The notes: generated by a model from the sequence alone, not told the origin. 64,000 nucleotides of DNA from Alphaproteobacteria bacterium (GCA_031426015.1 JANPKK010000055.1:17912-81911), one strand, 5' to 3'; shown: positions 17,272 to 44,200, numbered from the stretch's first letter. Made by a program: numbers and translations.

Positions 17272-17272
17272 A

Positions 17273-22994: not shown

Positions 22995-22999
22995 CGCCG

Positions 23000-25111: not shown

Positions 25112-25325
25112 AAGGGCACCTTGACGATTGCTGTTGGTGGGGTGTTAGTGGGGAATAGCGCAAACGGTCGCTAAAATCACCTTAAATTTTACCCCACCAA
25201 ATCCCCACAGGAAACGTCAGTAAACCCTTGTAACGCTCAAAAACGATGAAAACTCATAGTTTTGTCAAACCTAAGAATTCCCGGAACTTAGGTAACGCCC
25301 ATAGCGTCAGAAAACATGTGAACAT

Positions 25326-25375
25326 ATCATTCGTAATGATGGGGTCAGGTGTTCGAGTCACCTAAGCGGCACCAT
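25326..25375 (+). repeat. attR: 50-bp direct repeat (partial tRNA-Thr copy)
   Basis: Identical to 14295-14344. It lacks the 5' third of the tRNA, so it is not a functional tRNA gene. Confidence 0.9.
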
Positions 25376-25441
25376 CCCTTTCACAAGGCAAATCCAAGCG
25401 TGGGACGGAAAAAGTTCCCGTCGGGTCGCGGCTGGGACGCC

Positions 25442-25653
25442 ATGCGGGTGCTTTGTGCGCTGAACGCGAGCGAACCGTCGCTAGTCCTTCTTATCGTCTC
25501 GCAATTGCACGGTCATCGGACGTAGGCGCGTTCCGGCCGGAGGACCTCGGGTGGCAGGTTCCAACGATGGTTATGCTGCTGTCGCTGCCGATGATCGGCC
25601 AGGCGCTCGCCGGTTTCGTTGCCGAAACCAGCGCGTTGATCGTCCGCGGCTGA
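25442..25653 (+). pseudogene. fliQ: Degraded fliQ remnant
   Basis: The 3' end encodes LPMIGQALAGFVAETSALIVRG, FliQ C-terminus-like, and stops 1 nt before the fliR ATG. An upstream FliQ-like TM piece (SLVLLIVSQ) is in another frame and stops early. Total length is too short for an intact ~88-aa FliQ. Confidence 0.45.
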
Positions 25654-25654: not shown

Positions 25655-26407
25655 ATGGATGCCTTTCCCGCGCAGGCCAGCGCCTTCCTGCTGCTCTACG
25701 CGCGGCTTGGCGCCGTGGCGATGCTGCTGCCGCTGTTCGGCGAAGACGCCGTGCCGACGCGGATCCGGCTGCTGCTTGGATTGGGGCTGACCGCCGGGCT
25801 ATGGGGGCTGTTGTCGGCGCGGGTGCTGCCGGTTGCCGCCAATCCGGCGGCGCTGCCCGGGGCGTTGATCGCCGAGCTGCTTGTCGGGCTGGGGCTGGGC
25901 ATGGTCGTCAAGATCATGTTCCAGGCCGCCGCCATGGCAGGCTCGATCATCAGCCTGCAGATCGGGCTGAGTTCGGCCCTGATCAACGATCCCGCCCAGG
26001 GTGGCCAGGCGCCGCTGCTGTCGAAATTCGTCAGCATGGCGGCAACGCTCGTCTGCCTTGCCGCCGGCGTCCATCACCTGCGGATCGCTGCCATGGTCCA
26101 GTCCTATGCGCTGTTTCCGGTCGGCGCCTTGCCGCCGGCGGGCGATTTCGCGCAGCTGGCGATCGCCGTCACCGGCAAGGCGATGGCGCTGGCGGTGGCG
26201 CTGGCAGCGCCGATGCTGGTCTATGGCATCGTGCTCAACATCGCGCTCGGCATGGCGGTACGGCTGGCGCCGGCGATCCAGGTCTTTTTCATTGCCCAGC
26301 CGCTGACGATCATGCTCGGGCTGACGGTGGCCGCGATCACGCTGGGGCCGTTGCTGCTGGCGTTTTCCGCCGCGATGACGACCTGGCTGCAGACGACCCT
26401 GGCCTGA
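25655..26407 (+). CDS. fliR: Flagellar biosynthetic protein FliR
   Basis: 250-aa polytopic protein. N-terminus FLLLYARLGAVAMLLPLFGE is typical of FliR. It sits immediately upstream of flhB. Confidence 0.9.
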   Translation: MDAFPAQASAFLLLYARLGAVAMLLPLFGEDAVPTRIRLLLGLGLTAGLWGLLSARVLPVAANPAALPGALIAELLVGLGLGMVVKIMFQAAAMAGSIISLQIGLSSALINDPAQGGQAPLLSKFVSMAATLVCLAAGVHHLRIAAMVQSYALFPVGALPPAGDFAQLAIAVTGKAMALAVALAAPMLVYGIVLNIALGMAVRLAPAIQVFFIAQPLTIMLGLTVAAITLGPLLLAFSAAMTTWLQTTLA

Positions 26408-26410
26408 CCG

Positions 26411-27466
26411 GTGTCCGACGACAGCAAGACCGAAGAACCGACCGCCAAGAAGCTGTCCGACGCGCGCGAGAAGGGCGACGTGCCGATGGCGCCCGAAATG
26501 CGCCACGCCATCATGTTCGCCGCCGCGATCATCGTCGCCAGCGGGCTGGGTGCCATGACCCTGGCGCGCGCGACGCCGCTGCTGCTGCGTTTCTGGGGCC
26601 GTGCCGACGATGTCCGGCTCGATGCCAGCAGCGCCCAGGGCTTTTTCACCGGCGTGCTGCAGGCGGCGGCACTGGCGCTGGCGCCGTTGCTGGCCCTGCT
26701 GTTCGGCTTTGCCCTGCTGACGATGTTTTCGCAGGGGCTGCCGACGCTGTCGTGGAGCCGGGTCGGGGTCAAATGGTCGAAAGTCTCACCGGTGGCAGGC
26801 TTCGGCCGGCTGTTCAGCGTGCAGGCGGTTGTCGAGCTTGCCAAGACGGTGCTCAAGCTGATGGCGGTCATCACCATCGCCGCCATCGTCGTCATCCCTC
26901 AGGCGGTGGGCCTCGTCCAGATGATGAGCAGCGATCCCGGCAGCATCGGCAAGACGGCAACCACCATCGTCGCGATGATGGTCAAGGCGGTGCTCATTCT
27001 GGTTTTCGCCATTGCCGCCTTCGATTTCGTCTATCAGCGCTTCAGCTATTTCAAGCGCAAGCGCATGTCGAAACAGGAGATCAAGGACGAATACCGCCAG
27101 AGCGAAGGCGATCCGGCGATCAAGGCGCGGATCCGGTCGATCGGCATCCAGCGCGCGCGTCGCCGGATGATGGCCGCGGTACCGACCGCCAGCGTCGTCA
27201 TCACCAATCCCACCCATTTTGCCATTGCGCTGAAATACGATCACGGCGGCATGGCGGCGCCAGTCATCGTGGCCAAGGGCGCCGACGCGATCGCCCTGAA
27301 GATTCGCGAGGTCGCGCGCGCGGCCAATGTGCCGATCGTCGAAAGCCCGGCACTGGCGCGGGCGCTGTTCGCCAGCGTCGAGATCGGCCATCCCATATCG
27401 ACCGAGCATTACGCCGCGGTGGCCGAAATTATCGGCTATATCCTGCGCCTGGCCCGCCAGCGGTAA
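26411..27466 (+). CDS. flhB: Flagellar biosynthetic protein FlhB
   Basis: N-terminus SDDSKTEEPTAKKLSDAREKGDV, four TM segments, the autocleavage site NPTHFAIALKY and a C-terminal cytoplasmic domain. GTG start. Confidence 0.92.
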   Translation: MSDDSKTEEPTAKKLSDAREKGDVPMAPEMRHAIMFAAAIIVASGLGAMTLARATPLLLRFWGRADDVRLDASSAQGFFTGVLQAAALALAPLLALLFGFALLTMFSQGLPTLSWSRVGVKWSKVSPVAGFGRLFSVQAVVELAKTVLKLMAVITIAAIVVIPQAVGLVQMMSSDPGSIGKTATTIVAMMVKAVLILVFAIAAFDFVYQRFSYFKRKRMSKQEIKDEYRQSEGDPAIKARIRSIGIQRARRRMMAAVPTASVVITNPTHFAIALKYDHGGMAAPVIVAKGADAIALKIREVARAANVPIVESPALARALFASVEIGHPISTEHYAAVAEIIGYILRLARQR

Positions 27467-27526: not shown

Positions 27527-28003
27527 TCAGGCCTCCGGTTCCGCCGGTTCAACGTCCCAAGGTGGCGCCATCGCGGTGAGGAGGTCGACCAGCGCCGTGG
27601 TGCGTTGGGCGACCAGATCGGCGAGGGTGTAGCGTTCCAGTACCGCGAAAAACGCCGCCAGTGCTTCGTCGACAACGCCGGTCAGTCCGCATGCCGGCGC
27701 AATCGGACACGCCGGGCAATCGAGCATCGCCAGTCCCTCGGCGCCGGGCTGCGTCTCGCTGCCACGGATCACCACGCCGACATTGATCGTATCTGCCGGT
27801 CGCGCCAGCTTGACGCCGCCGTAGCGACCGCGAACCCCGGTGACATGGCCGGCCTTTCCCAGCTGATGGACGACCTTCATCAGGTGGTTTTGCGAGATGC
27901 CATAGGCCTGCGCCATTTCGGGAATGGTCGATATCCGATCGGGACGCGCCGCGAGGTACATCAGCACGCGCATCGAATAATCGGTGTAGCGAGTCAGGCG
28001 CAT
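27527..28003 (-). CDS. Rrf2-family transcriptional regulator, NsrR-like
   Basis: MRLTRYTDYSMRVLMYLA winged-helix N-terminus and a three-Cys cluster (DCPACPIAPAC). Divergent from a haemoglobin gene. Confidence 0.85.
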   Translation of the reverse strand: MRLTRYTDYSMRVLMYLAARPDRISTIPEMAQAYGISQNHLMKVVHQLGKAGHVTGVRGRYGGVKLARPADTINVGVVIRGSETQPGAEGLAMLDCPACPIAPACGLTGVVDEALAAFFAVLERYTLADLVAQRTTALVDLLTAMAPPWDVEPAEPEA

Positions 28004-28075: not shown

Positions 28076-28100
28076 CGAAATTGCATGAATGGAGCGGGCG

Positions 28101-28541
28101 ATGGACGCCGATGCCATGATTACCGAGGCACAGATCGCGACGCTGATCCCGCGTTTTTACGACCGTGTCAGGGCCGATGCGCTGATTGGGCCGGTGTTCG
28201 CCGGCGCCATCGGCAACTGGCCGCCGCATCTTGAAAAGCTGATGGCTTTCTGGTCGTCGGTGATGCTGACCAGCGGTCGCTACAAGGGCAACCCGATGGC
28301 GGCGCACCTGCGGCATCTGGCGACGATCACCCCGCCGATGTTCGATCGCTGGCTGGCGCTGTGGCGGCAGGCGACCGAAGAAATGCTGCCCGGCGAGATC
28401 GCGGCCGAGCTGCAGGCCAAGGCCGAACGCATCGCGCAAAGCCTCAAGCTGGCGTTGTATTTTCGCCTGCCGCCGCGTGGCGCGCCCAGGCCGCGCGACG
28501 CGACCACGCCGCGCGACGCGACCACGCCGGCGGGCGCCTGA
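28101..28541 (+). CDS. Group III truncated haemoglobin
   Basis: IPRFYDRVRADALIGPVF ... WPPHLEKLMAFWSSVMLTSGRYKGNPMAAH ... FDRWLALW is the typical trHb III signature. ATG 28101 lies 6 nt after GGAG. The 3' end carries an 18-bp tandem duplication. Confidence 0.85.
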   Translation: MDADAMITEAQIATLIPRFYDRVRADALIGPVFAGAIGNWPPHLEKLMAFWSSVMLTSGRYKGNPMAAHLRHLATITPPMFDRWLALWRQATEEMLPGEIAAELQAKAERIAQSLKLALYFRLPPRGAPRPRDATTPRDATTPAGA

Positions 28542-28842: not shown

Positions 28843-29126
28843 CGATTTCAAACGATGATGCCCGCACGCGCAAGGCTCGCACCAGCTTCTGGCGATTGAT
28901 CGTTTATCTGGGCATTGCCGGGGTCGCGATGGTGGTGGCGGCGCTCTATTATCTGTCGTTGTACGGCCCGCTCACACCGACGCTTGTGCTGACCACCGGC
29001 GTCGGGGTGTTCGTTTCGATCCTGCTCGGCGGTGGCCTGATGGCAGCGGGTTTCCTGAGTTCGAACAGCGGCCATGACGAGCGCGCCGCGGCCGCCACCG
29101 CGGCAGTGCCCCCCGTCGTCGAATAG
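28839..29126 (+). CDS. Small membrane protein
   Basis: ATGA overlap with the preceding gene. Two hydrophobic helices. 95 aa. Confidence 0.55.
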   Translation: MTISNDDARTRKARTSFWRLIVYLGIAGVAMVVAALYYLSLYGPLTPTLVLTTGVGVFVSILLGGGLMAAGFLSSNSGHDERAAAATAAVPPVVE

Positions 29127-29138
29127 CCGCACCGGGTG

Positions 29139-29603
29139 ATGGATGACTTCATCCTGGCGCGCGCTGTCCATGTCATTGCGGTGCTGTTGTGGATGGGCGG
29201 CGTTGCCTTTGTCACGCTGGCCCTGATGCCGGTGATCGGCGCCGACCAGCCACCCGCGGCCCGGATCGCGGCCTTCCATGCGATCGAGCGGCGGTTTTCG
29301 GCGCAGGCAAAGCTGTGGGTGCTGATCGCCGGGGCCAGCGGTTTCTGGATGGTCTGGCGCACCGACATGTGGAGCCGCTTTGCCGAGCCGCGTCTGTGGT
29401 GGATGCACGCGATGGTCGGGCTGTGGCTGGTGTTCATGCTGATGCTGTTCGTGCTGGAACCGCTGGTCCTGCACCGTGCCATGGCGGCACCGGATCCGCA
29501 GGGGCGCTCGTTCGCCCGGATGGAGCGCGTGCATCGCCTGCTGCTCCTGCTCGGTCTGATCACGCTGTTCGGCGCTGTCGCCGGTAGCCATGGCATGGCC
29601 TGA
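29139..29603 (+). CDS. Four-TM membrane protein of unknown function
   Basis: MDDFILARAVHVIAVLLWMGGVAFV... with four hydrophobic helices. Same strand and operon-like spacing with the globin cluster. Confidence 0.6.
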   Translation: MDDFILARAVHVIAVLLWMGGVAFVTLALMPVIGADQPPAARIAAFHAIERRFSAQAKLWVLIAGASGFWMVWRTDMWSRFAEPRLWWMHAMVGLWLVFMLMLFVLEPLVLHRAMAAPDPQGRSFARMERVHRLLLLLGLITLFGAVAGSHGMA

Positions 29604-29624
29604 ACAGCCTTTGCGCGGCGGGGC

Positions 29625-30290
29625 TTATCCGGCGTTGCGCCGCCTTGCCGAATGACGCCGCACACTTTCGAACAGGCGGTCGAGATCGTCGCGGCCGATG
29701 TCGAACGTCTCGCCCAGCTCGGCGAGCGCGGCGTCGAGGTCCTCCGGATGCGGCTCCGCTGCAATCGGTGGCGCCACCGGCCGATGCGGGTAGGAATGGC
29801 GCGTCAGCCGGTGAAACAGGATGCCCGTGACGGCAAGGAGCACCGCGTTGATGCCGACGGGCACGATCGGGAACAGCCAGCCGGCCGACGCTACCGCCGG
29901 GCCGCCGATGACCGCGGTGAGGGCCGCTGCGCCGCCGGGCGGATGCAGGCAGCGCAGCAGCGACATCACCAGGATGGCGCCGCCCACGGCCACGCCCGCG
30001 GCGAGTGCCGGTGATGACACCAGGCTGGCCGCCAGCACGCCGACGAAGGCCGAGATGACATTGCCGCCGACCACCGGCCATGGTTGCGCGAGGGGACTGG
30101 CGGGCACGGCGAAGACGAGGACGGCGCTCGCGCCCATCGGCGCCACCAGCAGCAAGGCGAGCGGCCCGCTGCCGAGCACGCAGGTCGTTATCAGGGTGGT
30201 CGCGATGATCCCGATAACCGCGCCTGCCGATGCAACGACCCGATCGCCCAGGGTGGCACCGGCAAGCAGGGGGACAAAAAAGGTGCGCAT
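29625..30290 (-). CDS. HPP-family membrane protein
   Basis: Signature CLHPPGGAAALTAV within a polytopic N-terminal domain. 221 aa. Confidence 0.8.
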   Translation of the reverse strand: MRTFFVPLLAGATLGDRVVASAGAVIGIIATTLITTCVLGSGPLALLLVAPMGASAVLVFAVPASPLAQPWPVVGGNVISAFVGVLAASLVSSPALAAGVAVGGAILVMSLLRCLHPPGGAAALTAVIGGPAVASAGWLFPIVPVGINAVLLAVTGILFHRLTRHSYPHRPVAPPIAAEPHPEDLDAALAELGETFDIGRDDLDRLFESVRRHSARRRNAG

Positions 30291-30404: not shown

Positions 30405-33400
30405 CTAGAACTCGATCGCCTCGGCAAAGACGATGCGATCGATGGTCGGCCCCGGCAGGCGTGGTTCGGGGCTGGTGTCATAGGTTTCATATTCGGTGAT
30501 CAACAGCCGCAACCGTTCGCCTTCGGCGCGCAATGGCAGGAAGATGCTGGTTTCGAACAGCAGCGGCGGCCGGACCAGTTCGAGCAACCCCGGATCGGCG
30601 AACAGCTCGCCGAAGCGGCCGCTGGCCACCAGGCCTTCCGCTTCGACGAAGCGCGCCCGGCCGATGGCATCGAGGCTGCGCAAGCGTTGCAAGCGCTGGA
30701 TCGGCGCCACCCGGCGCGACCGGATGCCATTGCCGATCCCGCCCAGCGGCGGCAGTGGCGGCACGCCTTCGTCGGTCTTGATCCAGCCGAGATCGGGGTC
30801 GGCACCCACGGGCAGGCGCTGCAGTTCGACGCGAAAATTGGTGGCATCGGGCAGCCCTTGCGATTCCGTCGGGCCGACGCCGTGGACGGCGATGATACGC
30901 TGGCCGGCGTTCGCCCCCGGCGTGGTGACCACCAGCCGGTCATTGGTCAGCTGCGCGAAATCCGCCAGCACGGCGGCCGACAGGTGCAGCCCCGAAACCG
31001 ATGCCGGCTGGAACCGCGCCAGCGCCAGGCGAATGAAGGGCATGTAGCTGTCGTGCGGATTGACGACGATATCGGCGTACCAGAGCTTGCGGCTCGCATC
31101 ATAGCCGACCGCGTGCGGCACGATATCGAGCTCGGTCGTGGCGGGCGCGCCGCGCGGCCGGTACGGGCCTGTGGCAAACCCGGGCAGCGCCACGCCATCG
31201 GGAGACGGATCGACCGGTCCAAAAGCCTCGCCCTCGGGTGCGATGGCGTATTTCAACGTCTGGCCGGCGCGTACCCGCAGCGGGAAATCGCTCGCCTTGG
31301 GTGCCACCGTGTCGATGTTGCCGTTCAGCCAGATCGGATCGGCGCCCCACATCGTCACATAGTTCTTGTCGGCGTTTTCCTGCGGGTCGGCCGGGCCGCG
31401 CGGCAGGCAGACCGCCAGCATCTCGTTGCTGCCGGTGGCGAACCACGGCCGATCGAGATAGACGCGCAAGCCGCCGCCGCGGCGCCAGCTTTGCTGTTTG
31501 GCGCTGCCCTGGCCGCTGCGGTTCCAGCCGAAGGTCGGGATGATGTAGCGGATCGATGGCGCCGGCGGGGCGGTCGCGCTGGGCACCCAGATCGCCTGGC
31601 GGTCGGACTGTACGGTGATCTGCGGCGGATCGATGCGCACGGCTTCGGGCAGATACTCGCGAAAACGCGTCGTCGCGGTGGCGACATAGCCGACGCGGCG
31701 GGCGCGGGTATCGGCAAACACATGATCGCCGCCCAATGAGGCAAGGCTTGGATCGAGCCGGAACGGCTTGTGGTCGAAGGCATGGCCGCTGACCTGGCGC
31801 ACCACCGGGCCCGAAGGCGCGCTGTCGTCGATCTCGATCCAGTCACCATCGATATCGATGCGCGCCGTCGATTTGGGGTGGAGGGGGGTGCGAAAGCCTA
31901 GTTGCGCCGCCACCGCCCCGGATGCCCGCTGCGCGAAGATCGTCGCGACCTGTGGCGTCACCAGCGGCTTTTGCACCGCATGGACAAGCTCGACCATGCG
32001 GTTCGGCGTGAACATCCAGTGCTGCCCGGCCATGACCCGGCGCTCGATCTTCTTCCAGCCCTCGAGGCCGTGCTCGCGGATGACGAGCTCCTTCATCTTC
32101 ATCAGCTCGATGGCCGCATCGGGCATCACCGCGCTGATGAACAGCCGGGCGCGTTCGGCCTTGGCGAGCGGCACCACGAAGCGCCGGCGATCGGGGTCCC
32201 AGCCGGGGTCGCCGGTTTCGCGCGCGGCGATGGCGAAACTGTCGTCCTTCAGCCAGTCGAGCGGCGCCTGCGGGTCCCACTTGTCACCATAGAAGGGCAC
32301 GAAATGCAGGTCGTTCCACACCGGATCGGACAGGCCGGTAACGCGAATGGCGGCGCCGCCGGCAATCGGATCGGGCGGATAGGGCGTGGCGCCATGTTCG
32401 GGGGACCGGGTGAAGGCAGTTTCGACATCGGGCAGCGACATGGGCTCCGGATCGCCGGGCTCGGGCGGTGGCTGCCATGGCCGCGTCAGCGCGATATCCT
32501 CCTTGAACGCCGCGTCGCGCTCGACGAGCGTGTCGTACAGGTCGGCGCGCGGCGTGCCTTGCGGCGAGTCGATGACGCCATGCAATTCGGCGAAGCGATG
32601 CCCGACCCGCGCCGGATGGACGTTGCGGCGGACGATCGTGGTCGATTCATGGGGCGCCAGCATCGATCGCAGCGCGGCGCGCGGCATCGATTCGCCCTCC
32701 GCCGGTGCCGGGTCGCCATCGATCACGGTCAGCACCGGGGTTTCCAGCGGTTCATAGCGGCCGAACTGCACGCCGGCGGACGCGACGCCCGGCAAATCGA
32801 TATCGCGGCGGGTGAAGCGCGGGCCGCCGCCGGCCAGATCGACACTGCGCAGCCGCACCTGATAGACATGGCCGAAGCGCAGCACCGGCAACGATTTCGG
32901 CTGGGCGCGGAATTCGGTGGCGAGCGGCAGGCCGGGCGGCACGGTATTGGGCGCGTCGCCGGGTTCCTCCTTCATCGGCACATCGTCGGTTTCGGCATAG
33001 TCGGGCAGCATCGTGCGCCCCGGTGGCGGCGCGGCAAGGCTCCAGCCGGTCCAGCCGAACAGCGCCTCGCTGGCCTTGAGGATGTTCTTCGTCGCCGCAC
33101 TGGCATTGTCGTCGGCGGTCTCGGCCGCCGCGAGGCGGGCAATCGCTTCCTCGTCGCTGGTCCGCACCTCGCGGCCATCGGCGACGAAGCCGTAACGGCC
33201 TTCGAAACGCATCAGCGATTGCCAGCCATTGCCGGTGCCATTGCCGTCGCGGGTGCGGTCGAGCACGTCGATGCGCCAGCCCTTGACCAGATCTTCGGCC
33301 GACAACACCACCGTCTGGCCGTTGTTCATCCGGTCGTCATGGTTGCCGGCCTTGTCGAACAGGCCGCGGATGGCGATGTCGCGCCGCGTCTGCGCGAACT

Positions 33401-34571
33401 GGATGCCGGCGGTGCGCAGCCGCGGCGCGCCGGTGCGGGCGACGGGATCCCGCGGGATCTCGTCATCGAAGCGTTCCTCGATCATGCGCGGCAATTGCGT
33501 CGCCATGTTCTTGACCGTCAGCCCGGCGCCATCGACATCGAGCTGGACCAGCGCAAAATCCTTGTCGCTGCGCAGCCAGCCTTCGACGAGCTGCTGGCCG
33601 GTGGCGCGTGACCTGAAGCCGCGATCGGAGACCCGCGCCAGGGTCTCGCAGAATGTGTCGCCGGGCGCTTCGGTGCCCTGCGGGTCCCAACGCACTTCGA
33701 CGCCGATCTGCCAGTTGCCGGGTGGCACGCGTTCGGCCGGCACCAGCAGCGGCACCACCAGCCCGGTCAGCCGTTGCAGGACCGGATGCTGGCCGACGGC
33801 GGCGGCGACGCGGTGGAAATCGAGATTCTTGCGAAATTCATCGGCCTCGGGCATCGGCACCCGCTCGACGGTCTGCCATTCGACATCCTCATTGGGGTCC
33901 AGCGGATCGGGCGCGCCGCCGACCATGCGCTTTTTCAAGTTGCCCGGCACGACCTTGGCGAGCGGCTTGTGATAGGCGGCGAGCAGCGCCAGCATCAGTG
34001 CCGGATTGTCCGCCAGCACCTTGTCGTTGTCGGTCTGGCGCAACAGGTCGAGCAGCGCGCCCAGGTTTGGCGTTTCGCGCTTGGTGCCGAACAGCGGCAA
34101 CCGCTTGAAATCCTGCACCGTCGGCAGGGCGTCGCCCGCCACCAGTGCCAGCCCGGCATAGGTGGTTTCAATCGCATCGGCGAGCGCTGCCATCGGATAG
34201 GTCAGCACGTCGCGACCGCGAAAATCGTCGAAGACGTGCGAAATGACCGGTGTGTTCTTGGGGAACAACAACTGCCACACATCGGAATCGGGGACGAAAC
34301 TGTCGTCGCTGTCGAGCGCCGGCCACGGACCAGCGCCGTCGGCAATGCGCGCCTCGATCGGGTCCGGCCCCGCGCCGAACAGCCGGAATTTGGCCGTCGC
34401 CAGCGTCGCCGGCCAGTCACGCCAGGCACCGAAATCGCCGAGCTCGCCATCGCCCGGTGACCCCATGACGAGCCGCGGCGACACGTGCAGGTCGATGCGA
34501 TAGAATTTTCGATCGCCAGTCAATCCGGCGGGGCAGGCGGTCCAGACGACCTGTTGGGTGTTGTCGGCCAT
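30405..34571 (-). CDS. Giant hypothetical protein (1388 aa), second gene of a two-gene operon
   Basis: Uninterrupted 4.2 kb ORF with host-like codon usage. ATG 34571 lies 9 nt after GGGGG and 15 nt after the upstream gene's stop. No signal peptide, TM helix, P-loop or metal-binding motif seen by eye. Confidence 0.8.
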   Translation of the reverse strand: MADNTQQVVWTACPAGLTGDRKFYRIDLHVSPRLVMGSPGDGELGDFGAWRDWPATLATAKFRLFGAGPDPIEARIADGAGPWPALDSDDSFVPDSDVWQLLFPKNTPVISHVFDDFRGRDVLTYPMAALADAIETTYAGLALVAGDALPTVQDFKRLPLFGTKRETPNLGALLDLLRQTDNDKVLADNPALMLALLAAYHKPLAKVVPGNLKKRMVGGAPDPLDPNEDVEWQTVERVPMPEADEFRKNLDFHRVAAAVGQHPVLQRLTGLVVPLLVPAERVPPGNWQIGVEVRWDPQGTEAPGDTFCETLARVSDRGFRSRATGQQLVEGWLRSDKDFALVQLDVDGAGLTVKNMATQLPRMIEERFDDEIPRDPVARTGAPRLRTAGIQFAQTRRDIAIRGLFDKAGNHDDRMNNGQTVVLSAEDLVKGWRIDVLDRTRDGNGTGNGWQSLMRFEGRYGFVADGREVRTSDEEAIARLAAAETADDNASAATKNILKASEALFGWTGWSLAAPPPGRTMLPDYAETDDVPMKEEPGDAPNTVPPGLPLATEFRAQPKSLPVLRFGHVYQVRLRSVDLAGGGPRFTRRDIDLPGVASAGVQFGRYEPLETPVLTVIDGDPAPAEGESMPRAALRSMLAPHESTTIVRRNVHPARVGHRFAELHGVIDSPQGTPRADLYDTLVERDAAFKEDIALTRPWQPPPEPGDPEPMSLPDVETAFTRSPEHGATPYPPDPIAGGAAIRVTGLSDPVWNDLHFVPFYGDKWDPQAPLDWLKDDSFAIAARETGDPGWDPDRRRFVVPLAKAERARLFISAVMPDAAIELMKMKELVIREHGLEGWKKIERRVMAGQHWMFTPNRMVELVHAVQKPLVTPQVATIFAQRASGAVAAQLGFRTPLHPKSTARIDIDGDWIEIDDSAPSGPVVRQVSGHAFDHKPFRLDPSLASLGGDHVFADTRARRVGYVATATTRFREYLPEAVRIDPPQITVQSDRQAIWVPSATAPPAPSIRYIIPTFGWNRSGQGSAKQQSWRRGGGLRVYLDRPWFATGSNEMLAVCLPRGPADPQENADKNYVTMWGADPIWLNGNIDTVAPKASDFPLRVRAGQTLKYAIAPEGEAFGPVDPSPDGVALPGFATGPYRPRGAPATTELDIVPHAVGYDASRKLWYADIVVNPHDSYMPFIRLALARFQPASVSGLHLSAAVLADFAQLTNDRLVVTTPGANAGQRIIAVHGVGPTESQGLPDATNFRVELQRLPVGADPDLGWIKTDEGVPPLPPLGGIGNGIRSRRVAPIQRLQRLRSLDAIGRARFVEAEGLVASGRFGELFADPGLLELVRPPLLFETSIFLPLRAEGERLRLLITEYETYDTSPEPRLPGPTIDRIVFAEAIEF

Positions 34572-34586
34572 GGCGTCAGACCCCCG

Positions 34587-37500
34587 TCACGCGAACGCGT
34601 CGCAATATTCGTTCCACACCGACTGGTCGGTGATGAAATCACGGAACAATGGATCGGATTCGGACCCGGCAAAGGTCTTTTCGACCTTGACCGAAACCGA
34701 CGCCGAAAAGAAAAGTATCTCGATTTCGACCGTCAGTTTCGCCTGTCCGAACAGCCGGTTCTGGCGGTGCGGGCGGCCATCGGCCTTGTCGGGCAGCGCC
34801 TTGGATTCATAGGTCAGCGACAGGTGGAAGGTCAGGCTGACGGTAATCAGGCCGAGCACCGACAGCCGGCCGCCAAGCTCGATATAGCCTTCGAATTCGA
34901 CGCCTTCGGGGCTGACCGAATAATGGAAGTAGAAGCCGCCCTTGATATAGACCGAGCCCGAGGCAACCCCGAGGTTGATGGCGATCTGCGCGCCGAATTC
35001 CAGCGCCGCCTCGATCTCGCGGACCCCGTCGGTACCGACGACGACAGCCAGAAAGCCGCCGCCACCGATCAACGAAACGGTCAGGTTGAAGGTGTTGTGA
35101 CGTTCGGCAAAGTTGAAGCGCGCGCTGGGGGCATCGCCGTTGAAGGGCAGGGTGAAGGCAGCGCCCAGCGTGATGTTCGACAGGCTGAGGATGCCGCATT
35201 GGATGGCCGGCAGCCCGAGCGAATAGCCGGCGGTGATGCCCGCCGGAGTGACCTGCAGATCGGGCGGATCGGAAAAGGCATTGGACGGGATATAGTCCTT
35301 CAGCGTGTTGATGAACTCCAGCGGCCCGCCGAACGTGACACCGGTCTGCGGGTTGAGATCGACATCGACATCGGGCTTGCGGCCACTGGTTTTGAGGAAG
35401 CGCAGGCGGTCGAAATGGATGATGATGACGCCGACGAGGTTGAGCTTGAAGTGCACCATCGTGCCTTCGATCCGGGTCAACGCCGGCTCGCCGCTACGGA
35501 ACAGCGTCGTCGTTGCGGTCAGGTCGAGGCTGCTCTGGCCGCCCTGGTTGAGCTTGAGGGCATCGACCGGGCTGTCATCGAGATTCTGGAACAGCCGGAA
35601 CGTGGTTTCGATCCGTTCCCCCAGGCCGCCGCCGGCGGGCAGTTCGACCGAGGTGAACTTGGGTGATTCAGTGCCGAGGTCGACCTCGCGCAGGATCGCG
35701 CCAAGTTCGAAGAAGCCGAGCAGCTTGGCGCCGGCAAAAAAGTCCTGGGGTCGAAACTTGCCATCGGTGACATTGCCGGTGCCCGACATGACGCCGTGGC
35801 GGCGGGACAGGGCCGATGGCACCATGCTGGGGGTCGCGACGCCGCCGACGGTGTCGCTGCCGGCGCCGCTGCTGCCGAAATCCAGTGCCGGCGGGGTGGG
35901 CAGCTTGAGGAAAAGTTCGGACTTGTTGGCGCCGCCGAAGCCATCGAGGACATAGGCCGGGTCGAAGACGACTTCGGGGGTCAGCGCCTGGCCGGTCAGG
36001 CGTTCGACGCTGGCCAGCCTGACGCGAGCCGATTCGATGACCGGCTGCTGCTGCAGCGTCGTTGCCTGGATGGTCGAAATGGCACCGGCCGGATCATGGC
36101 TGCGAAAAAACAGCGATTGCGTCGGCAAGTCGACATCCGCCGCTTCGGTGCCCTGTGCATCGGCAAAGCGCATCGTCGCGCCGTGGGTGTTGGCGGTGCG
36201 GCGCGCCACCAGGCTGTTGTAATGGTCGCGGATGGCCGGGATATACGCGCTCTGGTTGAGCACTTCGGACACGAACATCGCCGGCATCTGGAACGGCACC
36301 CGCCGGCCGGCCGCATCGGTGCCGACCAACGGGAAATTGAACAGCGCCAGGGGATTATTGTCGCGCGCCGGCCAGAATGCCATGCGCGGCGGGCGATCGA
36401 CGGTGTAGAAATCCGGCGGCAGGCTCGTCGACAGCGTGCCGCCCGGCTCGTCGAGATTGGGCGTGGTATCGAGCATCACCTCGATGGTGTCGAACGGCAT
36501 GGTGCGGCCGAGGTCGGGTTGCGGCGCGGCGTTGGGATAGGCGCGGATTTTTTCGCGCACGACGATGAAGAAGCGTTGGCGCAGAATGGCGACCCGGTCG
36601 CGCCCGGCACCGCGCCACTGGAACTTGCGTTCCGACAGCTTCACCAGCGTCGCGGCATGGCCGAACGGAAACAGGAACCCGGCATATTCGACGCGGACAT
36701 AGGAATCGCGGCCCTGCGACAGGCGATGCGTCCAGGCCAGCAGGTCGACCCCGTCGGGGCGGGTTTTCCAGCGCCGGTCGGCATCGAGCGTACCGCCGAG
36801 CGCGGTCATGATCAGCCGCTTCGAATCGACCGGGCGCGGCGTGAAGCGGCCGCCACCCGGCAGCTTTTCGTCATAGCCGGCGGTCAGCTTGACGATCATC
36901 TTGCGATCGAGGCCCGTCAGGCTGAAATTCACCGGGTCGTTGCTGGTTACGGCATAATCGGGTGACCAGAGGTAGCGCAATTGCCGCCCGGCACGCGGAT
37001 CGGCAACGGGTCCGACGGGGCCGATTTCGCCGATTTCGGCGAATTCCGGGCGTTCGAAATGCGGCCCCAGCCGCGTGTGCCACAATTCGGTGCGGCCACC
37101 GCGGACCACGGGGGCCGTCGCATGGTCGAAGCCGGCACCGGGCAGCGGCGAGGCGATCAGCCGCCACGGCATTTCGATGGCGGTGCGGTCCTTGCCCGGT
37201 GGCCGCGGCTTGAGGACGACGCCGAAAAAGCCTTCGGACAGATCGAGCATCGAGCCGATTTCAAGGCCCTCGCGCTGCAGGCCCGAGACGGCGGCGAAGG
37301 TGCTGGCGGTGCGCAAGTAAAGCTCCGCCGCACTGCGCACATCGGTCGGGTTGCCGCCCGGCGCCGAGTTGGCGAGCAACGCTTCGAGCTCGCGCTGCGC
37401 CAGCATTTCGGTGCTGCGCGGCGCCAGTTCGCGCCCGGCGGCAATGGCAGCGACCGATTGTTCGGCAATGCGTTCCGCCGCCATGTCGAGCCCGGCGAAC

Positions 37501-38168
37501 TGATCATCGTCGAGCGTGCCGGCCAGCAGGTTGCGTGCCGTCGCGGTGACCGCCCCGAACTCGCTGGCGACCGTTTCGAACAGGCTGCGGCGGCCGCCCC
37601 CCAGGTTGAAGACGGGGTCGGCGACCGCGGCGGCATCGAGCGCCAGTTCCCAGGTGCGGCAGGCGGTAAGCAGTGCCTCCAGCGTCAGATCGATCCGGTC
37701 GATGCCATCGGGCATCCTGAACGCGAGCCGCGAACGCCCGGACGCCCGGATCTTCATGGGAACCGAGGGAATATTGGCAGTGCCGACAGGCGGCGGCCCG
37801 TCATTTTCATGACCGCGCAGTTCCTTGGCATTGGCTTCGTCGGTCTGCCCGGCAGTTTCGAGAAGCGCCTCGTCGGCAAGCGATTGCGGCTGGTGTTCGG
37901 CGATCAGCCAGGCGGGCGCGCCCGGTTCGGCGCGTTCGAGCCGGTTGGCGCGGCGGACAAGGCCGGGGCCGCGAAAATCCAGCACCAGCATGTCGTCCGG
38001 CCGGATGACGCGGATTTTCCAGGCAATCGCTTCGGGCCGCGGCCGTACATCGGCAATTTCGGCATCGCTGATCGCTTCGATGAGGCTGGCGATGCTGGCG
38101 GTTTCGGCGAGCGTGCCCGACCCGAGCCGCCTGATGGCGTCGCCAATCGTGCGGAAACGATCAGGCAT
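34587..38168 (-). CDS. Giant hypothetical protein (1193 aa), first gene of a two-gene operon
   Basis: Uninterrupted 3.6 kb ORF. I prefer ATG 38168 (GGGGGG 6 nt upstream) over the track's GTG 38198. The C-terminal ~230 aa is Gly-rich with an alternating hydrophobic beta-strand pattern. No recognisable domain. Confidence 0.8.
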   Translation of the reverse strand: MPDRFRTIGDAIRRLGSGTLAETASIASLIEAISDAEIADVRPRPEAIAWKIRVIRPDDMLVLDFRGPGLVRRANRLERAEPGAPAWLIAEHQPQSLADEALLETAGQTDEANAKELRGHENDGPPPVGTANIPSVPMKIRASGRSRLAFRMPDGIDRIDLTLEALLTACRTWELALDAAAVADPVFNLGGGRRSLFETVASEFGAVTATARNLLAGTLDDDQFAGLDMAAERIAEQSVAAIAAGRELAPRSTEMLAQRELEALLANSAPGGNPTDVRSAAELYLRTASTFAAVSGLQREGLEIGSMLDLSEGFFGVVLKPRPPGKDRTAIEMPWRLIASPLPGAGFDHATAPVVRGGRTELWHTRLGPHFERPEFAEIGEIGPVGPVADPRAGRQLRYLWSPDYAVTSNDPVNFSLTGLDRKMIVKLTAGYDEKLPGGGRFTPRPVDSKRLIMTALGGTLDADRRWKTRPDGVDLLAWTHRLSQGRDSYVRVEYAGFLFPFGHAATLVKLSERKFQWRGAGRDRVAILRQRFFIVVREKIRAYPNAAPQPDLGRTMPFDTIEVMLDTTPNLDEPGGTLSTSLPPDFYTVDRPPRMAFWPARDNNPLALFNFPLVGTDAAGRRVPFQMPAMFVSEVLNQSAYIPAIRDHYNSLVARRTANTHGATMRFADAQGTEAADVDLPTQSLFFRSHDPAGAISTIQATTLQQQPVIESARVRLASVERLTGQALTPEVVFDPAYVLDGFGGANKSELFLKLPTPPALDFGSSGAGSDTVGGVATPSMVPSALSRRHGVMSGTGNVTDGKFRPQDFFAGAKLLGFFELGAILREVDLGTESPKFTSVELPAGGGLGERIETTFRLFQNLDDSPVDALKLNQGGQSSLDLTATTTLFRSGEPALTRIEGTMVHFKLNLVGVIIIHFDRLRFLKTSGRKPDVDVDLNPQTGVTFGGPLEFINTLKDYIPSNAFSDPPDLQVTPAGITAGYSLGLPAIQCGILSLSNITLGAAFTLPFNGDAPSARFNFAERHNTFNLTVSLIGGGGFLAVVVGTDGVREIEAALEFGAQIAINLGVASGSVYIKGGFYFHYSVSPEGVEFEGYIELGGRLSVLGLITVSLTFHLSLTYESKALPDKADGRPHRQNRLFGQAKLTVEIEILFFSASVSVKVEKTFAGSESDPLFRDFITDQSVWNEYCDAFA

Positions 38169-38705
38169 CGCGGTCCCCCCGTCGTTGCAAGCCGGCACGT
38201 ACCAGCAGCGCCTAGGTCAACAAATTCCGATGTTCTACTTGCGAGTCGTGAGCAGTATCCCGCGAACAGTCGGGCAAGACAAGCATGAATCGAACACCCG
38301 GCGTCAACATCGAGGCACCACGGCTTTTGGCTCTCGCGGCGCCGATTCCCGGGATTTATCCTTTGGTGTATTTCATGAACAATATATTCACGAAATTTTA
38401 TTTAAAGAAATTGGGCTTATGCGGCGGATCAAATCTTGTTTAACGCGATGTTATGGCGTTCATCAATCAAGAATAATTGTCTATCTACCACCGATCAACT
38501 GAATGAACTCAATCGAATTGCGGCAGGAATCATCGTCACATCTTGGCGCGTAGTACGTCCGGAGCGACGCACAGCAGCGCGATTTCGGACCGACCGCCGC
38601 GGCATCAGCCGCCGGCTCACTGCCGGTTATGAGCGTCGACCAGCCGCTTCCCGGCTCGCGAGGCGACCGGCGGTGCCGACGGCCGCCCGGCGTGTCCCGG
38701 CGGTG

Positions 38706-39891: not shown

Positions 39892-41118
39892 TCAGGCCAT
39901 GCTGGCGACATGATGGACCAGGGCAATCTGGCGGGCGAGGCATTTGGGCAGGGCATAGCGATCGAGCACCAGGTCGCGTGCGGCCTTTCGCAGCGGCAGG
40001 TTCGCGTCGCCCGCCGCCAGCGCCGCACTGGTTTGCCGGCTGATCGCGGCGATATCGTACATATCGACCAGATAGCCGGTCTCGCCATGGCGGATGACTT
40101 CGCGCACCGGTGCCGTGTCCGACGCAACGATCACGCAGCCCGCCGCCATCGCTTCGACGCATGACCATGACAGGACGAACGGGATGGTCAAATAGATGTG
40201 CACTGACGACACCTGCAGCAGCGCCAGATAGCGCTGGTACGCAAGCTTGCCGGTGAAATGCACCCGCCCGGCGAATTCGGGGCGATCGAGCGGCACTTCG
40301 GCGAGCATCACTTCGCGCCAGGTCTTGCCGTCCGGCGGTGCCTGGCCATAGCTGACCTCGTCACCGCCGGTAATGACGACATGGGCGTTCGGGCGCGCCG
40401 CCAGGATCGCCGGCAGGCTGCGGATGAACGAGGGGAAACCGCGATAGGGTTCGAAATTGCGCGCCACATAGGTCAGCACCTCGTCATCACGGGTCAGCAC
40501 CCGGCCATCGTCGAGCCGGAAGCACGCGGTGGGATCGGGCGCGACGACATCGGTATCGATCCCGTCGAAGATCGTCCTGATTTTCGGTTGCAGCACCGCG
40601 GGGTGGCGGCTGCGCTGCCATTCGGTAGGTGACAGGCCGACATCGGCCATTTCGAGGCTAAGCAGGAGATGCGCGTTGCGCGCCCGCGTGCGGCACATCG
40701 TATCGAGCGTGACGACACTGCCGGGTTCGAAGCCGACATCGCCGCCCTGCGCTGTGTAATAATATTCGGCGTAACTGACCACCCGGGCACGCGGGAAGAC
40801 ATCCTTGACGAACAGCATTTCGCCCCAGCCGGGATGGCCGATGACGACCGCCGGATCGAAGCCTTCGCGTTTGAGCTCGACCATCGCCCGCGCCGCCTGC
40901 TGGCCATAGCGGACGCTGGCTTCGAACAGCCGGACATAATGATGCGTATCGGGCCCCGCCGGGCGCGGGCCATCATAGCTGACGCGGCGCACGCCGGGCA
41001 GATCGGCACCCTTGCGCCGGGTGATGAACACGACGCGGTGGCGCCCGTCGGCCGCCAGCGCCGGCGCGAGATGCTTGAACTGCGCCGGCATGTTCTGGTG
41101 GATGAACAAGATGTCCAC
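39892..41118 (-). CDS. Glycosyltransferase (GT-B fold, GT4-like)
   Basis: N-terminal MDILFIHQNMPAQFKHL Rossmann start and C-terminal VIVASDTAPVREVIRHGETGYLVD (E-x7-E-like region). GTG start. Confidence 0.8.
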   Translation of the reverse strand: MDILFIHQNMPAQFKHLAPALAADGRHRVVFITRRKGADLPGVRRVSYDGPRPAGPDTHHYVRLFEASVRYGQQAARAMVELKREGFDPAVVIGHPGWGEMLFVKDVFPRARVVSYAEYYYTAQGGDVGFEPGSVVTLDTMCRTRARNAHLLLSLEMADVGLSPTEWQRSRHPAVLQPKIRTIFDGIDTDVVAPDPTACFRLDDGRVLTRDDEVLTYVARNFEPYRGFPSFIRSLPAILAARPNAHVVITGGDEVSYGQAPPDGKTWREVMLAEVPLDRPEFAGRVHFTGKLAYQRYLALLQVSSVHIYLTIPFVLSWSCVEAMAAGCVIVASDTAPVREVIRHGETGYLVDMYDIAAISRQTSAALAAGDANLPLRKAARDLVLDRYALPKCLARQIALVHHVASMA

Positions 41119-41241: not shown

Positions 41242-44200
41242 TCAGAGGAGAATGTCTGCGGGCAGGATCGGTGTGATGGTGTCGAACGACACCTGGAAAT
41301 CGGGCGACAGCGATCCGGTCGTGTTTCCGAACAGCGCGACATTGCCCTCGGCATCCACCCCGATCCGCAACTGGCCCAGCCCGGTGAAGGCGGCGCTGCC
41401 GATGAAGGTGAAGGCCTGGTCCCCGGCCAGCGTCGCATCGGCATCGATGCCGGCAAGATCGATGATATCGCTGCCCGAGGTGAAATCGAGAATGCGATCG
41501 GCCTTGCTGGTGCCGACACCGCTGTCGGTGACCAGGGTGTAGACAAAGCTGTCCGACCCGGCGGCGCCCGCCAGCACATCGGCCCCGGCACCGCCGATGA
41601 TCCGATCGGCGCCCGCGGATCCGGTGATGCTGTCATTGCCGCCGGCGCCGTCGATCGATGCGATGCCCGACACGGCAACCGCGGCGAGATCGATCGTGTC
41701 GGCCGCCGTCGTGCCCAGCAGTCGCACCCCGGCAAAGCCGGCGCCTTCGATGGCCTCGACATTCGACAAGCTTGTCAGCCCGATCACGGCATTGTCGGCC
41801 GTTGCCCGGATGACATCATGGCCGGTGCCGCCGTCGATCCGGTCGCTGCCGTTGCTGGCCCCGGCGAGGAAGACATCATCGCCGTCGCCGCCGCCCAGCA
41901 GATCATTGCCCGCGCTGAGCAGGATGGTATCGGCGCCGGCCGAGCCGATTAGGGTGTCATTGCCGAAGCCCGCGTCGATGCTCGCGACGCCGGTGAGGGC
42001 GATCCCCGAGAAATCGAGCGTTTCGGCGCTGCTGCTGCCGATCAGCGCCAGCCCGGCATGGCCATCGGCATCGATCGCTTCGATCGAGGTCAGCGCCGTT
42101 ACCGTCAGCGTGACATTGTCGGCATCGGCGATGATGCGATCGAACCCGGCGCCGCCATCGATGCCGTCGACACCCGCGCCGCTGCGCGCGATGAAGCGAT
42201 CATCGCCATCGCCGCCGAACAGCAGATCATTGCCGCCGCCCAGAATAATGCTGTCGGCACCGGCTGAACCGGTGACGGTATCGTTGCCGAAGCCCGCGTC
42301 GATGCTGGCCACGCCGGTAAGCATGATGCCCGAGAAATCGAGCATGTCGGCCCCGCTGCCGCCGATCAGTGCCAGACCGGCCCGGCCATCGGCGTCGATG
42401 GCCTCGATCGAGGTCAGTGCCGTTACCGAAACAACCGCATTGTCGGCCGTCGCAATGATGCGATCGAAGCCGGCGCCGCCATCGAAACGGTCGGTTCCGG
42501 CTGCGGCCCCGATCTCGAAAACGTCGTTGCCATCGCCGCCCGACAAGGTGTCGCTGCCGCCGGCACCGACCAGCGTGTCATCGCCGCCATTGCCGCTGAG
42601 CTGGTTGCTGCCGCTGCCCCCGATGATCCGGTTGGCCAGGCCATTGCCGGTGCCGTTGACCGCCGCGCTGGTAACGAGTTCGAGATTTTCGACCCCGCTG
42701 GCCAGCACATGCGAGACCTTGGCGCGAACGCTGTCGATCCCGGCATCGGCGTCCTCGACGATCATGTCGCCCACGGCATCGACGAGATAGAGATCGTCGC
42801 CGCCGCCGCCCGCCATCGTGTCATTGCCGGTAAAGCCATCGATGATGTCGTTGCCTGCCCCGCCGCTGATCGCATTGGCCAGCGTGTTGCCGGTCAGCGT
42901 TGCCGCCGCCACGCCGGTAAACACAAGGTTTTCCACCTGGGTGAGGCTGCTGGTGCGCAAGCTGGTCACCGCCAGCGTGGTGATGACGGTATCGGTGCCG
43001 CCACCGGCTGCTTCGGTGATGCGGTCGCCGGTTTCGGTGACGTAATAGACGTCATTGCCGAGGCCGCCGGTCATCGCGTCAATGCCTTCACCGCCGCGCA
43101 GCGTGTCATTGCCGTCGCTGCCGGTCAGCACGTCGTTGCCGCTGCCGCCATCAAGGCTGTCGTTGCCGCCCAGCCCGGCCAGCGTGTCGTTGCCCGCCAG
43201 CCCGATGATGACATCGTCGCCGGCGCTGCCGCTGCGGTTATCGGCCAGCGTCGTGCCGGTGATGACCAGCCCGGTATTGGCATCGCTCGGCACGAAATCC
43301 TGGTCGGCAAAGCGCAGCAGCTCGATGCCGGACACGGTATCGTCGCCATCGGGGCCAAGCCCGCCGCGATTGTCGACGACGCGGAAGACGCCGGCCGAGA
43401 CCCGCGCGATGGTGTATTGATCGCGATTGCCCGAATAGACCGCGATATCGGCGCCATCGCCGCCATCGATGCTGTCATTGCCGTTGCCGCCGGTGATGCG
43501 GTCATCACCAGCCCCGGCGAGCAGGACGTCATTGCCGCCGCTGCCGTCGATGCTGTCGTTGCCGGCATCGTCGCCGCCGCGGATCGTATCGCCGGATTGC
43601 GAGCCGGTGATGACATCATGGCCGTCGCCGCCCGTGACATTTGCCCCGCCGCCGCTGACGGTGTCGTCACCGCTGCCGCCGTCGACACTGCTGCCAAAGC
43701 TGCCCGCCACCCGGTCGTTCCCGGCGCCACCGAGCAAAATGCCCTGGCCGGACAGATCGTCATTGCCGTCACCGCCATCGAGCAGATTGCTGCCGTCATT
43801 GTCGACCAGCACATCGGCATCGGCGCCGCCGTAAAGGCTGTCATCGCCGAGATTGCCGGCGAGCGTGTCGTTGCCTTCTTCGCCATACAGCGCGTCCTGG
43901 TTGTTGCCGCCGGCGATCACATCATCGCCGTTGCCACCTTCGGCTCGGTCATCGCCGAAACCGCCGTCGATGGCATCATTGCCGCTGCCGCCGAGCAACG
44001 TGTCGGCGCCATCGAAGCCGTCGAGCAGATCGTCGTCGGCACCGCCATCGAGGCTGTCGGCCCCGGCGCCGCCGAGCAACGCGTCGAAGCCGTCGCCGCC
44101 GGCCAGGGTGTCATTGTCGTTGCCGCCGTCGAGCCGGTCATTGCCGGCACCGCCCGCCAGATTATCGCCGCCGGCATTGCCGATGAGATAATCGTCGAGC

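Follow-up and report, generated by a model that had tools for sequence, protein, structure and literature searches.

A horizontally mobile cassette encoding two giant proteins without recognisable domains

A stretch of 64,000 nucleotides (nt) from Alphaproteobacteria bacterium (GCA_031426015.1 JANPKK010000055.1:17912-81911), referred to here in its whole length as the window, carries two adjacent genes on the minus strand at positions 30405–38168 that encode giant proteins, which we call A and B. A first reading of the sequence, made without database searches (the original prediction), had singled the two genes out as an operon with no recognisable domain and as a candidate for an undescribed system. 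The locus thus raises two questions: whether A and B form a unit beyond this one genome and, if so, what kind of unit that might be. We find that A and B make up a two-gene cassette that is autonomous and horizontally mobile, its genes being translationally coupled and inherited together. Far from being a lineage oddity, it is one instance of a pan-bacterial gene pair that is large in membership and unannotated.

A co-inherited, translationally coupled two-gene cassette

The cassette and its junctions are laid out as follows:

34587..38168, minus strand: gene A, 1193 amino acids (aa) from the ATG at 38168; stop codon 34587–34589
34572..34586, minus strand: A–B junction of 15 nt, cgggggtctgacgcc, read from the sequence, with a G-rich Shine-Dalgarno-like run
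30405..34571, minus strand: gene B, 1388 aa from an ATG start; stop codon 30405–30407
38169..38705, minus strand: upstream intergenic region of 537 nt, delimited by sequence and composition, with a GC trough of 34–43% at about 38350–38550

Two large minus-strand open reading frames (ORFs) separated by 15 nt are therefore present with the coordinates, lengths and junction originally described. An in-frame GTG at 38198 is an alternative start for A that would add 10 residues (34587–38198, 1203 aa); a GGGGGG run precedes the ATG. Read from this ATG, A is identical to a protein already in the databases (P0033), as is B (P0001). GC content at third codon positions (GC3) is 0.82 for A and 0.84 for B, similar to that of the neighbouring genes confirmed by Pfam, and the overall GC content of the pair is 0.64–0.685 vs. 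about 0.66 in the flanks. Because of this gene-like GC3 and the existence of hundreds of homologues, A and B are to be regarded as real genes and not as chance ORFs in high-GC DNA. A comparison of the two proteins with hhalign showed no relationship, which rules out duplication as the origin of the pair.

The strongest evidence for a unit comes from other genomes. A profile scan for A over 185,579 species, each represented by a single genome, yielded 368 confirmed loci that encode A, and we examined the best 80 of these 368 together with 7 loci reached through protein look-ups. In all 85 loci that have DNA past A, the next gene on the strand of A is a homologue of B; in the remaining 2 of the 87, contig ends cut off this region. 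Co-occurrence thus extends well beyond the present genome, the point on which the original prediction had itself been staked. The distance from the stop codon of A to the start codon of B has a median of 10 nt, is 20 nt or less in 73 of 85 loci and becomes an overlap of 1–4 nt in 21 of 85, which bears out the expectation of co-expression as a unit and, with the tight junction conserved across loci, demonstrates translational coupling of A and B. Pairwise distances of A and of B also rise together (r = 0.97 for 58 complete loci), with none of 999 Mantel permutations reaching this value. There is no conserved third gene: the 121 nearest neighbours match 111 different Pfam families, and the commonest of these, photolyase, has 5–6 members, mainly from related loci of the Aminicenantes/Saccharicenans type. 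The pair is an obligate, self-contained unit. In three loci (L044, L054 and L059) both A and B are split into several frame-shifted pieces, representing either pseudogenised cassettes or indel errors of long-read assemblies.

When all 1.84 billion cluster representatives were scanned with HMMER, 6,340 clusters (50% identity) fell into the A family at E ≤ 1e-3, of which 3,496 remained at E ≤ 1e-30. A word-indexed search recovered only 32 B proteins, and a repeat with the B alignment gave the same 32; since B adjoins every A checked, this number reflects the sensitivity limit of the search. Neither protein matches any family in Pfam, NCBIfam, PADLOC or PHROGs at E ≤ 1, and sequence and profile searches of the PDB with A and B returned noise (at best ATP synthase b on the helical region of A at E 1.5, and PhzD at E 0.44), so the absence of a recognisable domain holds against these databases too. 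Pfam searches with six more divergent homologues of A and B added nothing useful, a cluster look-up gave no annotation for either protein, and among the deposited homologues examined, all that bear a name are called “hypothetical protein.” Literature searches by concept and by RefSeq accession found no description of the A–B family. A family of such size and spread with a constant partner, yet with no model in Pfam, NCBIfam, PADLOC or PHROGs and no solved relative, represents a substantial annotation gap.

The hosts belong to the Alpha-, Beta- and Gammaproteobacteria, Acidobacteriota, Cyanobacteria, Verrucomicrobiota, Planctomycetota, Gemmatimonadota, Actinomycetota, Chloroflexota, Bacillota, Myxococcota and Ignavibacteriota, plus two archaeal metagenome-assembled genomes (MAGs). 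Cultured carriers include strains of Caulobacter and Asticcacaulis, Cupriavidus metallidurans CH34 and Pseudomonas japonica, as well as plasmid-bearing Streptomyces and members of the Bacillus cereus group. Among plasmid and chromid records, 22 contain A and 18 contain B, and all 15 A records among the matches listed also contain B; the carriers include B. cereus-group megaplasmids, Streptomyces plasmids, Rhizobium and the chromid of C. metallidurans CH34. Nearest relatives can cross phyla, as with Synechococcus/Cyanobium and Cellvibrio at about 60% identity. The cassette ends showed neither terminal repeats, direct or inverted, nor a transposase or integrase. The composition of the genes is host-like, as originally stated; the further suggestion that they are probably not recent imports is doubtful in view of their sporadic presence across phyla, their occurrence on plasmids, the cross-phylum nearest neighbours and the shifts of context between close relatives described below. 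The A protein of one “Eubacteriales” MAG (L083) shares about 90% identity with its counterparts from Aminicenantes/Saccharicenans loci, and that of a “Bifidobacterium” MAG (L060) has its nearest relative in Caballeronia (69% identity); these two contigs and that of a second “Eubacteriales” MAG (L085) may be mis-binned. Taxonomic breadth that is based on MAGs, including the two archaeal ones, needs to be treated with caution because of such possible mis-binning.

Architecture of A and B and a possible exported complex

The structure of A was modelled with AlphaFold2 from an 82-sequence alignment, reaching a predicted local distance difference test (pLDDT) score of 82.7 and a predicted template-modelling score (pTM) of 0.73. 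The regions of A are:

38019..38168, minus strand: A 1–50, lineage-specific leader at the N-terminus, with a low-confidence helical prediction
37689..38018, minus strand: A 51–160, N-terminal beta domain (AlphaFold secondary structure, pLDDT about 87–93; alignment)
37215..37589, minus strand: A 194–318, helical-hairpin region (helices in the model; identity 0.16–0.17, gaps about 0.2)
35889..37181, minus strand: A 330–760, central beta-rich region (pLDDT mostly above 90; identity up to 0.66)
34662..35660, minus strand: A 837–1169, C-terminal meander (strands in the model; identity 0.56–0.67, the most conserved part of A)
34590..34625, minus strand: A 1182–1193, conserved C-terminal helix ending ...W..YC.AFA-COOH (alignment and model)

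The conserved core of the A family begins at “VIRPDDMLVLDF,” the start of the N-terminal beta domain. The helical-hairpin region that follows is the least conserved and most indel-rich part of the protein, and the central region contains the blocks TELWHTRLG (360–368), WSPDY (401–405) and VRVEYAGFLFPFGHAATLVKLSERKF (491–516). In the C-terminal meander, antiparallel strands of up to 18 residues alternate with tight turns, and an invariant GGG lies within a GGGGF motif (1035–1039). The meander strands are strictly amphipathic throughout the family: one face has a Kyte–Doolittle (KD) hydropathy of about +2 with at most 8% charged residues, the opposite face is polar, with KD of about −1 to −1.9 and 16–45% charged residues. 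At the very C-terminus, W1185 and Y1188 are invariant, and C1189, A1191, F1192 and A1193 are conserved in at least 90% of sequences.

Foldseek searches of the PDB with the A model gave weak matches (best E 8e-5, TM-score at most 0.26). The neighbours fall among transmembrane beta-barrels (SlpA, LptD, MtrB, ushers, BcsC, porins) and lipid-binding sheets (MTP, OrfX/P47, LBP), while the best match in BFVD (E 1e-3, TM-score 0.07) was not convincing. Judging from the model, the amphipathic beta-sheet domain of A probably engages membrane or lipid. Confident structural matches to toxin complex (Tc) toxins, contractile injection system (CIS) components or adhesins had been named as an outcome that would refute the original prediction, and Foldseek yielded none.

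The model of B covers residues 189–1388 at lower quality (pLDDT 74.6, pTM 0.53) and consists mostly of strings of beta-sandwich domains resembling immunoglobulin (Ig), fibronectin type III (FN3) or macroglobulin domains. Its Foldseek matches in the PDB are alpha-2-macroglobulins (best E 3e-7), the FN3 arrays of cytokine receptors and phage T5 pb4, with TM-scores of at most 0.31. Three regions of B stand out:

34467..34571, minus strand: B 1–35, N-terminus conserved from the first Met (alignment; M..Q.V.WTA.P.G...LR...HVSPRL)
33018..33071, minus strand: B 501–518, Trp/Gly-rich block SEALFGWTGWSLAAPPPG, with invariant W507, G509 and W510
30999..31349, minus strand: B 1075–1191, the most conserved C-terminal beta-sandwich region (alignment, conservation and model)

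In essentially all loci the B profile begins at positions 1–7, and no homologue examined has a signal peptide. The Trp/Gly-rich block falls in a model segment with pLDDT below 50 (model 293–357, equivalent to B 481–545) and is a candidate interaction or membrane-contact loop. The blocks of B that had looked conserved by eye, WGADPIW (B 1075–1081) and YMPFIRLALARFQPAS (B 1176–1191), do lie on invariant columns: W1075, G1076, D1078, P1079, F1179, R1181, R1186 and P1189.

Regular expressions run over A and B found no Walker A, HExxH, RTX GGxGxD, YD, thioester or lipobox motif, in agreement with the list of absent motifs first drawn up by eye save for a single GxSxG-like string, GYSLG at A residue 981. 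No 19-residue window in either protein is hydrophobic enough for a transmembrane helix (maximum KD 1.74, in a predicted beta-strand), and each has three Cys residues. NTPase, nuclease and protease motifs were likewise missing from both by Pfam, NCBIfam, PADLOC and regular expressions, and the pair is likely not an NTP-driven enzyme machine.

A different picture of the A family emerges at its N-terminus. Many homologues carry what resembles a signal for twin-arginine translocation (Tat), in which an [ST]RRxx[LF] motif leads into a hydrophobic stretch free of charged residues. We scored such leaders by a home-made rule (RR, then within a few residues 13 uncharged residues with a mean KD of at least 0.9). 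By this rule they occur in 79 of 253 A-family proteins (31%), that is 42 of 73 long forms and 37 of 180 short forms. The rule picked out 22 of the 2,024 internal windows used as controls and none of the 32 B proteins. Among the genome loci, 35 of 80 have a Tat-like leader on A, including those of Caulobacter, Asticcacaulis, Aminicenantes, Streptomyces and a Nitrososphaerales MAG. Short-form examples are found in Streptomyces (“VSRRLFLRYSGAAGIAAAAAV”), Saccharicenans (“ISRRKFLSYAGILGATPVMGQ”), Caulobacter (“LNRRRVLTILAAGAATSAAAQ”) and the Nitrososphaerales MAG (“ASRRQFLKIVGGAAIVAGGSY”). Long-form homologues (1,450–1,790 aa) have an additional N-terminal domain of about 400 residues, and their consensus reads “RLNLxxLR” first and “SRRxxLGLAGxAA” after it. 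One A-family member matched the Pfam model TAT_signal. The statement that the proteins have no Sec or Tat signal is therefore right for the A protein of this locus and wrong for the family. Here, A has only “IRRLGSGTLAETASIASLIEAIS,” with RR at residues 13–14, a pair that is not conserved in its own clade, and with two Glu in the next 22 residues; because these fall in the would-be h-region, residues 1–50 are not a Tat signal.

The “RLNLxxLR” motif of long-form A proteins (e.g. L002:4461-9830, L068:6657-11345 and L090:10327-14442) lies 25–35 residues ahead of the twin-arginine motif. A related motif persists in one long-form A protein of Bacillus that has no RR motif, and a similar hydrophobic-xx-LR helix is also visible in the leaderless A proteins of Sphingomonadales. 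It might be a chaperone-binding or targeting element distinct from the Tat signal.

Taken together, these properties lead us to favour, at a probability of roughly 0.4, the following account: A and B assemble into a stoichiometric complex in the cytoplasm, leave the cell by Tat hitchhiking in those lineages whose A has a leader, and use the sheet of A on membrane or lipid and B as a binding array. The two proteins are co-translated from one mRNA, as the conserved tight junction shows, and would associate in the cytoplasm, in keeping with their obligate adjacency, their co-divergence and the conserved C-terminus of A and N-terminus of B. In lineages with a leader, the folded complex would leave through the Tat pathway with B as a “hitchhiker,” a role proposed for B because it has no signal anywhere. 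Outside the cytoplasm, the C-terminal amphipathic beta-sheet or barrel-like domain of A may contact membrane or lipid, while the long Ig/FN3/macroglobulin-like array of B, with its Trp-rich loop, may supply binding or reach. In the Sphingomonadales lineage of the present locus, where A is leaderless, the complex would either stay cytoplasmic or exit by another route. The likely role of such a complex would be in the cell envelope or in cell–cell contact, as a binary pore, a lipid-binding complex or a surface structure.

Several observations weigh against this account. NCBIfam gave no match for eight leader-bearing A homologues, so that the call of a Tat leader rests on our home-made pattern. 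Over half of the A family has no leader by this criterion, among them the present A and its Sphingomonadales clade, and export is therefore not a universal rule unless some other route exists. A third type of N-terminus, a Lys/Ala/Pro-rich basic tail resembling histone H1, replaces the leader in five homologues (P0089, P0090, P0107, P0109 and P0119). The structural matches of A and B are all weak and possibly reflect just generic antiparallel beta architecture, a complex of about 280 kDa would be unusually large for Tat, and one Bacillus plasmid locus sits among defence genes.

The conserved residues of B can also be read differently, namely as part of an enzyme or binding machine of two subunits with a polymer (cell-wall or other glycan) as its target, working in a compartment that varies with the Tat leader. 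Invariant Asp, Glu, His, Arg and Trp residues do occur in the B blocks (e.g. GES, ExHGxxD, WGADPxW and TTRFREY), and mixed presence of a Tat leader within one family is typical of enzymes with varying topology. One A homologue (P0253) is fused to an Rv2525c-like, glycoside-hydrolase-like domain, and at the B. bombysepticus locus a DUF1906 gene, of the same family as this domain, lies just upstream together with a gene for a papain-like protease. However, the association with glycoside-hydrolase-like proteins amounts to these two cases, no catalytic domain was detected by Pfam, NCBIfam, PDB profiles or Foldseek, and the models of A and B are almost all beta-sandwich and meander, with no TIM-barrel, (alpha/alpha)6 or Rossmann-type module. 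We consider such an enzyme quite unlikely.

If Tat hitchhiking and activity on membrane or lipid are true for the A–B complex, it would be a new kind of exported binary complex and among the largest Tat cargoes known. The full claim of a new class of two-protein machine—a complex of about 280 kDa with a novel fold, put together in the cytoplasm, exported in the folded state by Tat with B as hitchhiker, serving as a pore or lipid carrier and spread horizontally through more than 12 phyla—is doubtful as a whole. Such a machine would amount to a counterpart, in bacteria, of binary pore-formers or large lipid transfer proteins. Should the pair prove to be a defence system or an enzyme instead, its folds and mechanism would still be new.

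Genomic surroundings and what they imply

The cassette shares the minus strand with the genes for a giant RTX protein, a GT4 glycosyltransferase and a fatty-acid desaturase in a run from 30405 to 58167, as originally pointed out, and this run would be the ground for placing all of them in one larger surface-assembly operon. The boundary between A and the desaturase gene argues otherwise, being formed by the 537-nt AT-rich region at 38169..38705, which marks the upstream limit of the cassette and is the probable site of its own promoter and regulatory elements. A consensus promoter scan showed no strong sigma-70 site in this region, so the promoter counts as inferred; the scan for consensus promoters and terminators gave nothing convincing at either cassette end, and Rfam returned no riboswitch or leader RNA upstream. 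Relatives of the locus are more telling. A Polymorphobacter MAG (L008) aligns with the window at 86% DNA identity solely over 30406–38196, the cassette, and shares none of the flanks. A second relative (L009, 86–88% identical) keeps the desaturase gene, the cassette and the region 58374–61932 and has neither the RTX nor the GT4 gene, and in Glacieibacterium the cassette has TonB-receptor and porin genes as neighbours instead. RTX, GT4 and desaturase families are not enriched among the 121 neighbours in other genomes. The intergenic region and the synteny of relatives thus make the pair its own transcription unit. The link to the three genes is purely local and their same-strand run incidental, and we reject the larger operon as largely refuted and highly improbable.

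The RTX protein itself (41242–58167, minus strand) has 5641 aa and is almost wholly made up of RTX repeats, with 84 HemolysinCabind stretches and no other Pfam domain; the GT4 gene occupies 39892–41118. Since both are absent from the otherwise syntenic L009, they represent a variable insertion. On the other side of the cassette, an HPP-family gene (29625–30290) is overlapped by about 140 nt by a 271-aa ORF (28949–29764, minus strand; GC3 0.83, no Pfam or PHROG match), whose true start is for this reason probably further downstream. Next come a truncated-globin-like gene (28089–28541, plus strand), an Rrf2 regulator (27527–28003, minus strand) and the flagellar export genes fliR and flhB (25655–27466, plus strand), all of them ordinary chromosomal context between the cassette and a low-GC island at 14268–25500 (51–59% vs. 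about 66% GC). The island starts at a tRNA-Thr(CGT) gene (14268–14343), ends with a tyrosine integrase gene (23870–25111, minus strand) and contains a type III restriction–modification pair (res 14614–17271, mod 17273–18979), a GmrSD_N+HNH nuclease (18979–20220) and a 494-aa ORF (21510–22994) matching only phrog_4756. The whole has the appearance of a classic defence island integrated at a tRNA gene.

With such an island, including type III restriction–modification and GmrSD genes, about 5 kb from the cassette, and with an A protein that has no export signal here, the pair could be a cytoplasmic anti-phage or abortive-infection module in which A and B sense infection and the amphipathic beta domain of A damages the membrane. 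The sporadic, horizontally transferred distribution and the carriage on plasmids and chromids would fit this explanation. So would two loci elsewhere: on plasmid p1 of Bacillus sp. PGP15 the pair lies between an ABC-three-component system, a restriction endonuclease, a helicase-domain protein, a GTP pyrophosphokinase and a HEPN protein, and in a metagenomic locus (L006) it adjoins an EcoRII-C nuclease and a methylase. The wider neighbourhood gives the defence idea little support, however. PGP15 is the one clear defence island among nine annotated plasmid contexts, the others being metabolic or unannotated. When the first neighbour on each side of the cassette was scanned with PADLOC, few of the 121 nearest neighbours matched any model and no family did so more than twice, their Pfam families being mostly metabolic or regulatory. 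A and B themselves match no model of PADLOC-DB v2.0.0 at E ≤ 1 and contain no nuclease, NTPase, TIR, SIR2 or similar domain. The Tat-like leaders on 31–44% of A proteins would be needless for a cytoplasmic sensor. Phages, moreover, hardly carry the family, with no tblastn match for A in 50,697 phage genomes and one locus found with the A-family profile in 2.9 million viral contigs. A defence role is thus improbable, and an exported, membrane- or lipid-active complex remains the account that we favour.

Comparison with known systems

Tc (ABC) toxins, too, comprise several giant proteins from separate genes and have large beta-sheet shells, and like Tc and binary toxins the A–B pair is found on plasmids of the B. 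cereus group and other soil bacteria. Unlike Tc toxins, A and B have no VRP1, SpvB, TcdB or RHS domains, no YD repeats and no variable C-terminal toxin domain. An assignment to this class is ruled out by the lack of any Pfam or NCBIfam match at E ≤ 1, the absence of Tc structures from the top 50 Foldseek matches and the conserved C-termini. An RTX or type I secreted adhesin is excluded as neither protein has a GGxGxD motif or a Pfam HemolysinCabind match, and a phage tail-like or CIS component as neither has a PHROG match at E ≤ 1 and A has no convincing match in BFVD and none in phage genomes.

The best Foldseek matches of B are bacterial alpha-2-macroglobulins (ECAM/YfhM and Salmonella A2M; 5a42 at E 2.9e-7, 4u4j at 7.9e-6), which B resembles in size and in its long array of macroglobulin (MG)-like beta-sandwiches. 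TM-scores are 0.06–0.11, however, and B differs from these proteins in having no Pfam MG/A2M match, CxEQ thioester, helical thioester domain of about 300 residues, lipobox or signal peptide. The likeness is generic, because FN3 receptor arrays score equally, and B as an alpha-2-macroglobulin is ruled out by the missing thioester motif (C[GL]EQ) and the missing helical thioester domain in the model.

A shares with large transmembrane beta-barrels its long amphipathic antiparallel strands (Foldseek E 8e-5 to 1e-2, probabilities up to 0.97) and with Deinococcus SlpA an overall order in which a helical region precedes a big beta domain. In contrast to outer-membrane barrels, it lacks both a Sec signal and an aromatic beta-signal at the C-terminus, ending instead in a helix with AFA; on either side of its sheet the strands are joined by tight turns, and its homologues extend to archaeal MAGs and to the monoderm genera Bacillus and Streptomyces. 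Outer-membrane barrels are also not known to travel by Tat export. A barrel of the Omp85, LptD, usher or porin type is ruled out by the missing signal peptide, the AFA helix at the C-terminus and the homologues on Bacillus and Streptomyces plasmids.

Large lipid transfer proteins (LLTPs), such as MTP and vitellogenin, are built from an N-terminal beta domain, a helical region and amphipathic beta sheets, the same order as that predicted for A, and MTP (6i7s) ranks 4th and 7th among the matches of A (E 2.4e-4, probability about 0.9). On the other hand, TM-scores are 0.06–0.08 over about 380 columns, A has no Pfam Vitellogenin_N match and, to our knowledge, the family is otherwise eukaryotic. 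We take this model-based likeness as a lead only. The pair is tied to no existing kind, and “new” is used here in the sense of unassignable by the sequence and fold searches made.

The closest functional analogy would be with Tat hitchhiker complexes, in which only one subunit has a leader: the small and large subunits of hydrogenases, DmsA–DmsB and PlcH–PlcR. As in these, a leader is found on A only, the signal-less partner B is encoded next to it, and assembly would precede export. A and B differ from them in having no similarity of sequence or fold to the known hitchhikers, no cofactor-binding Cys/His motifs, a scale of 131 + 152 kDa and many leaderless members. The likeness would thus be one of logic and not of sequence.

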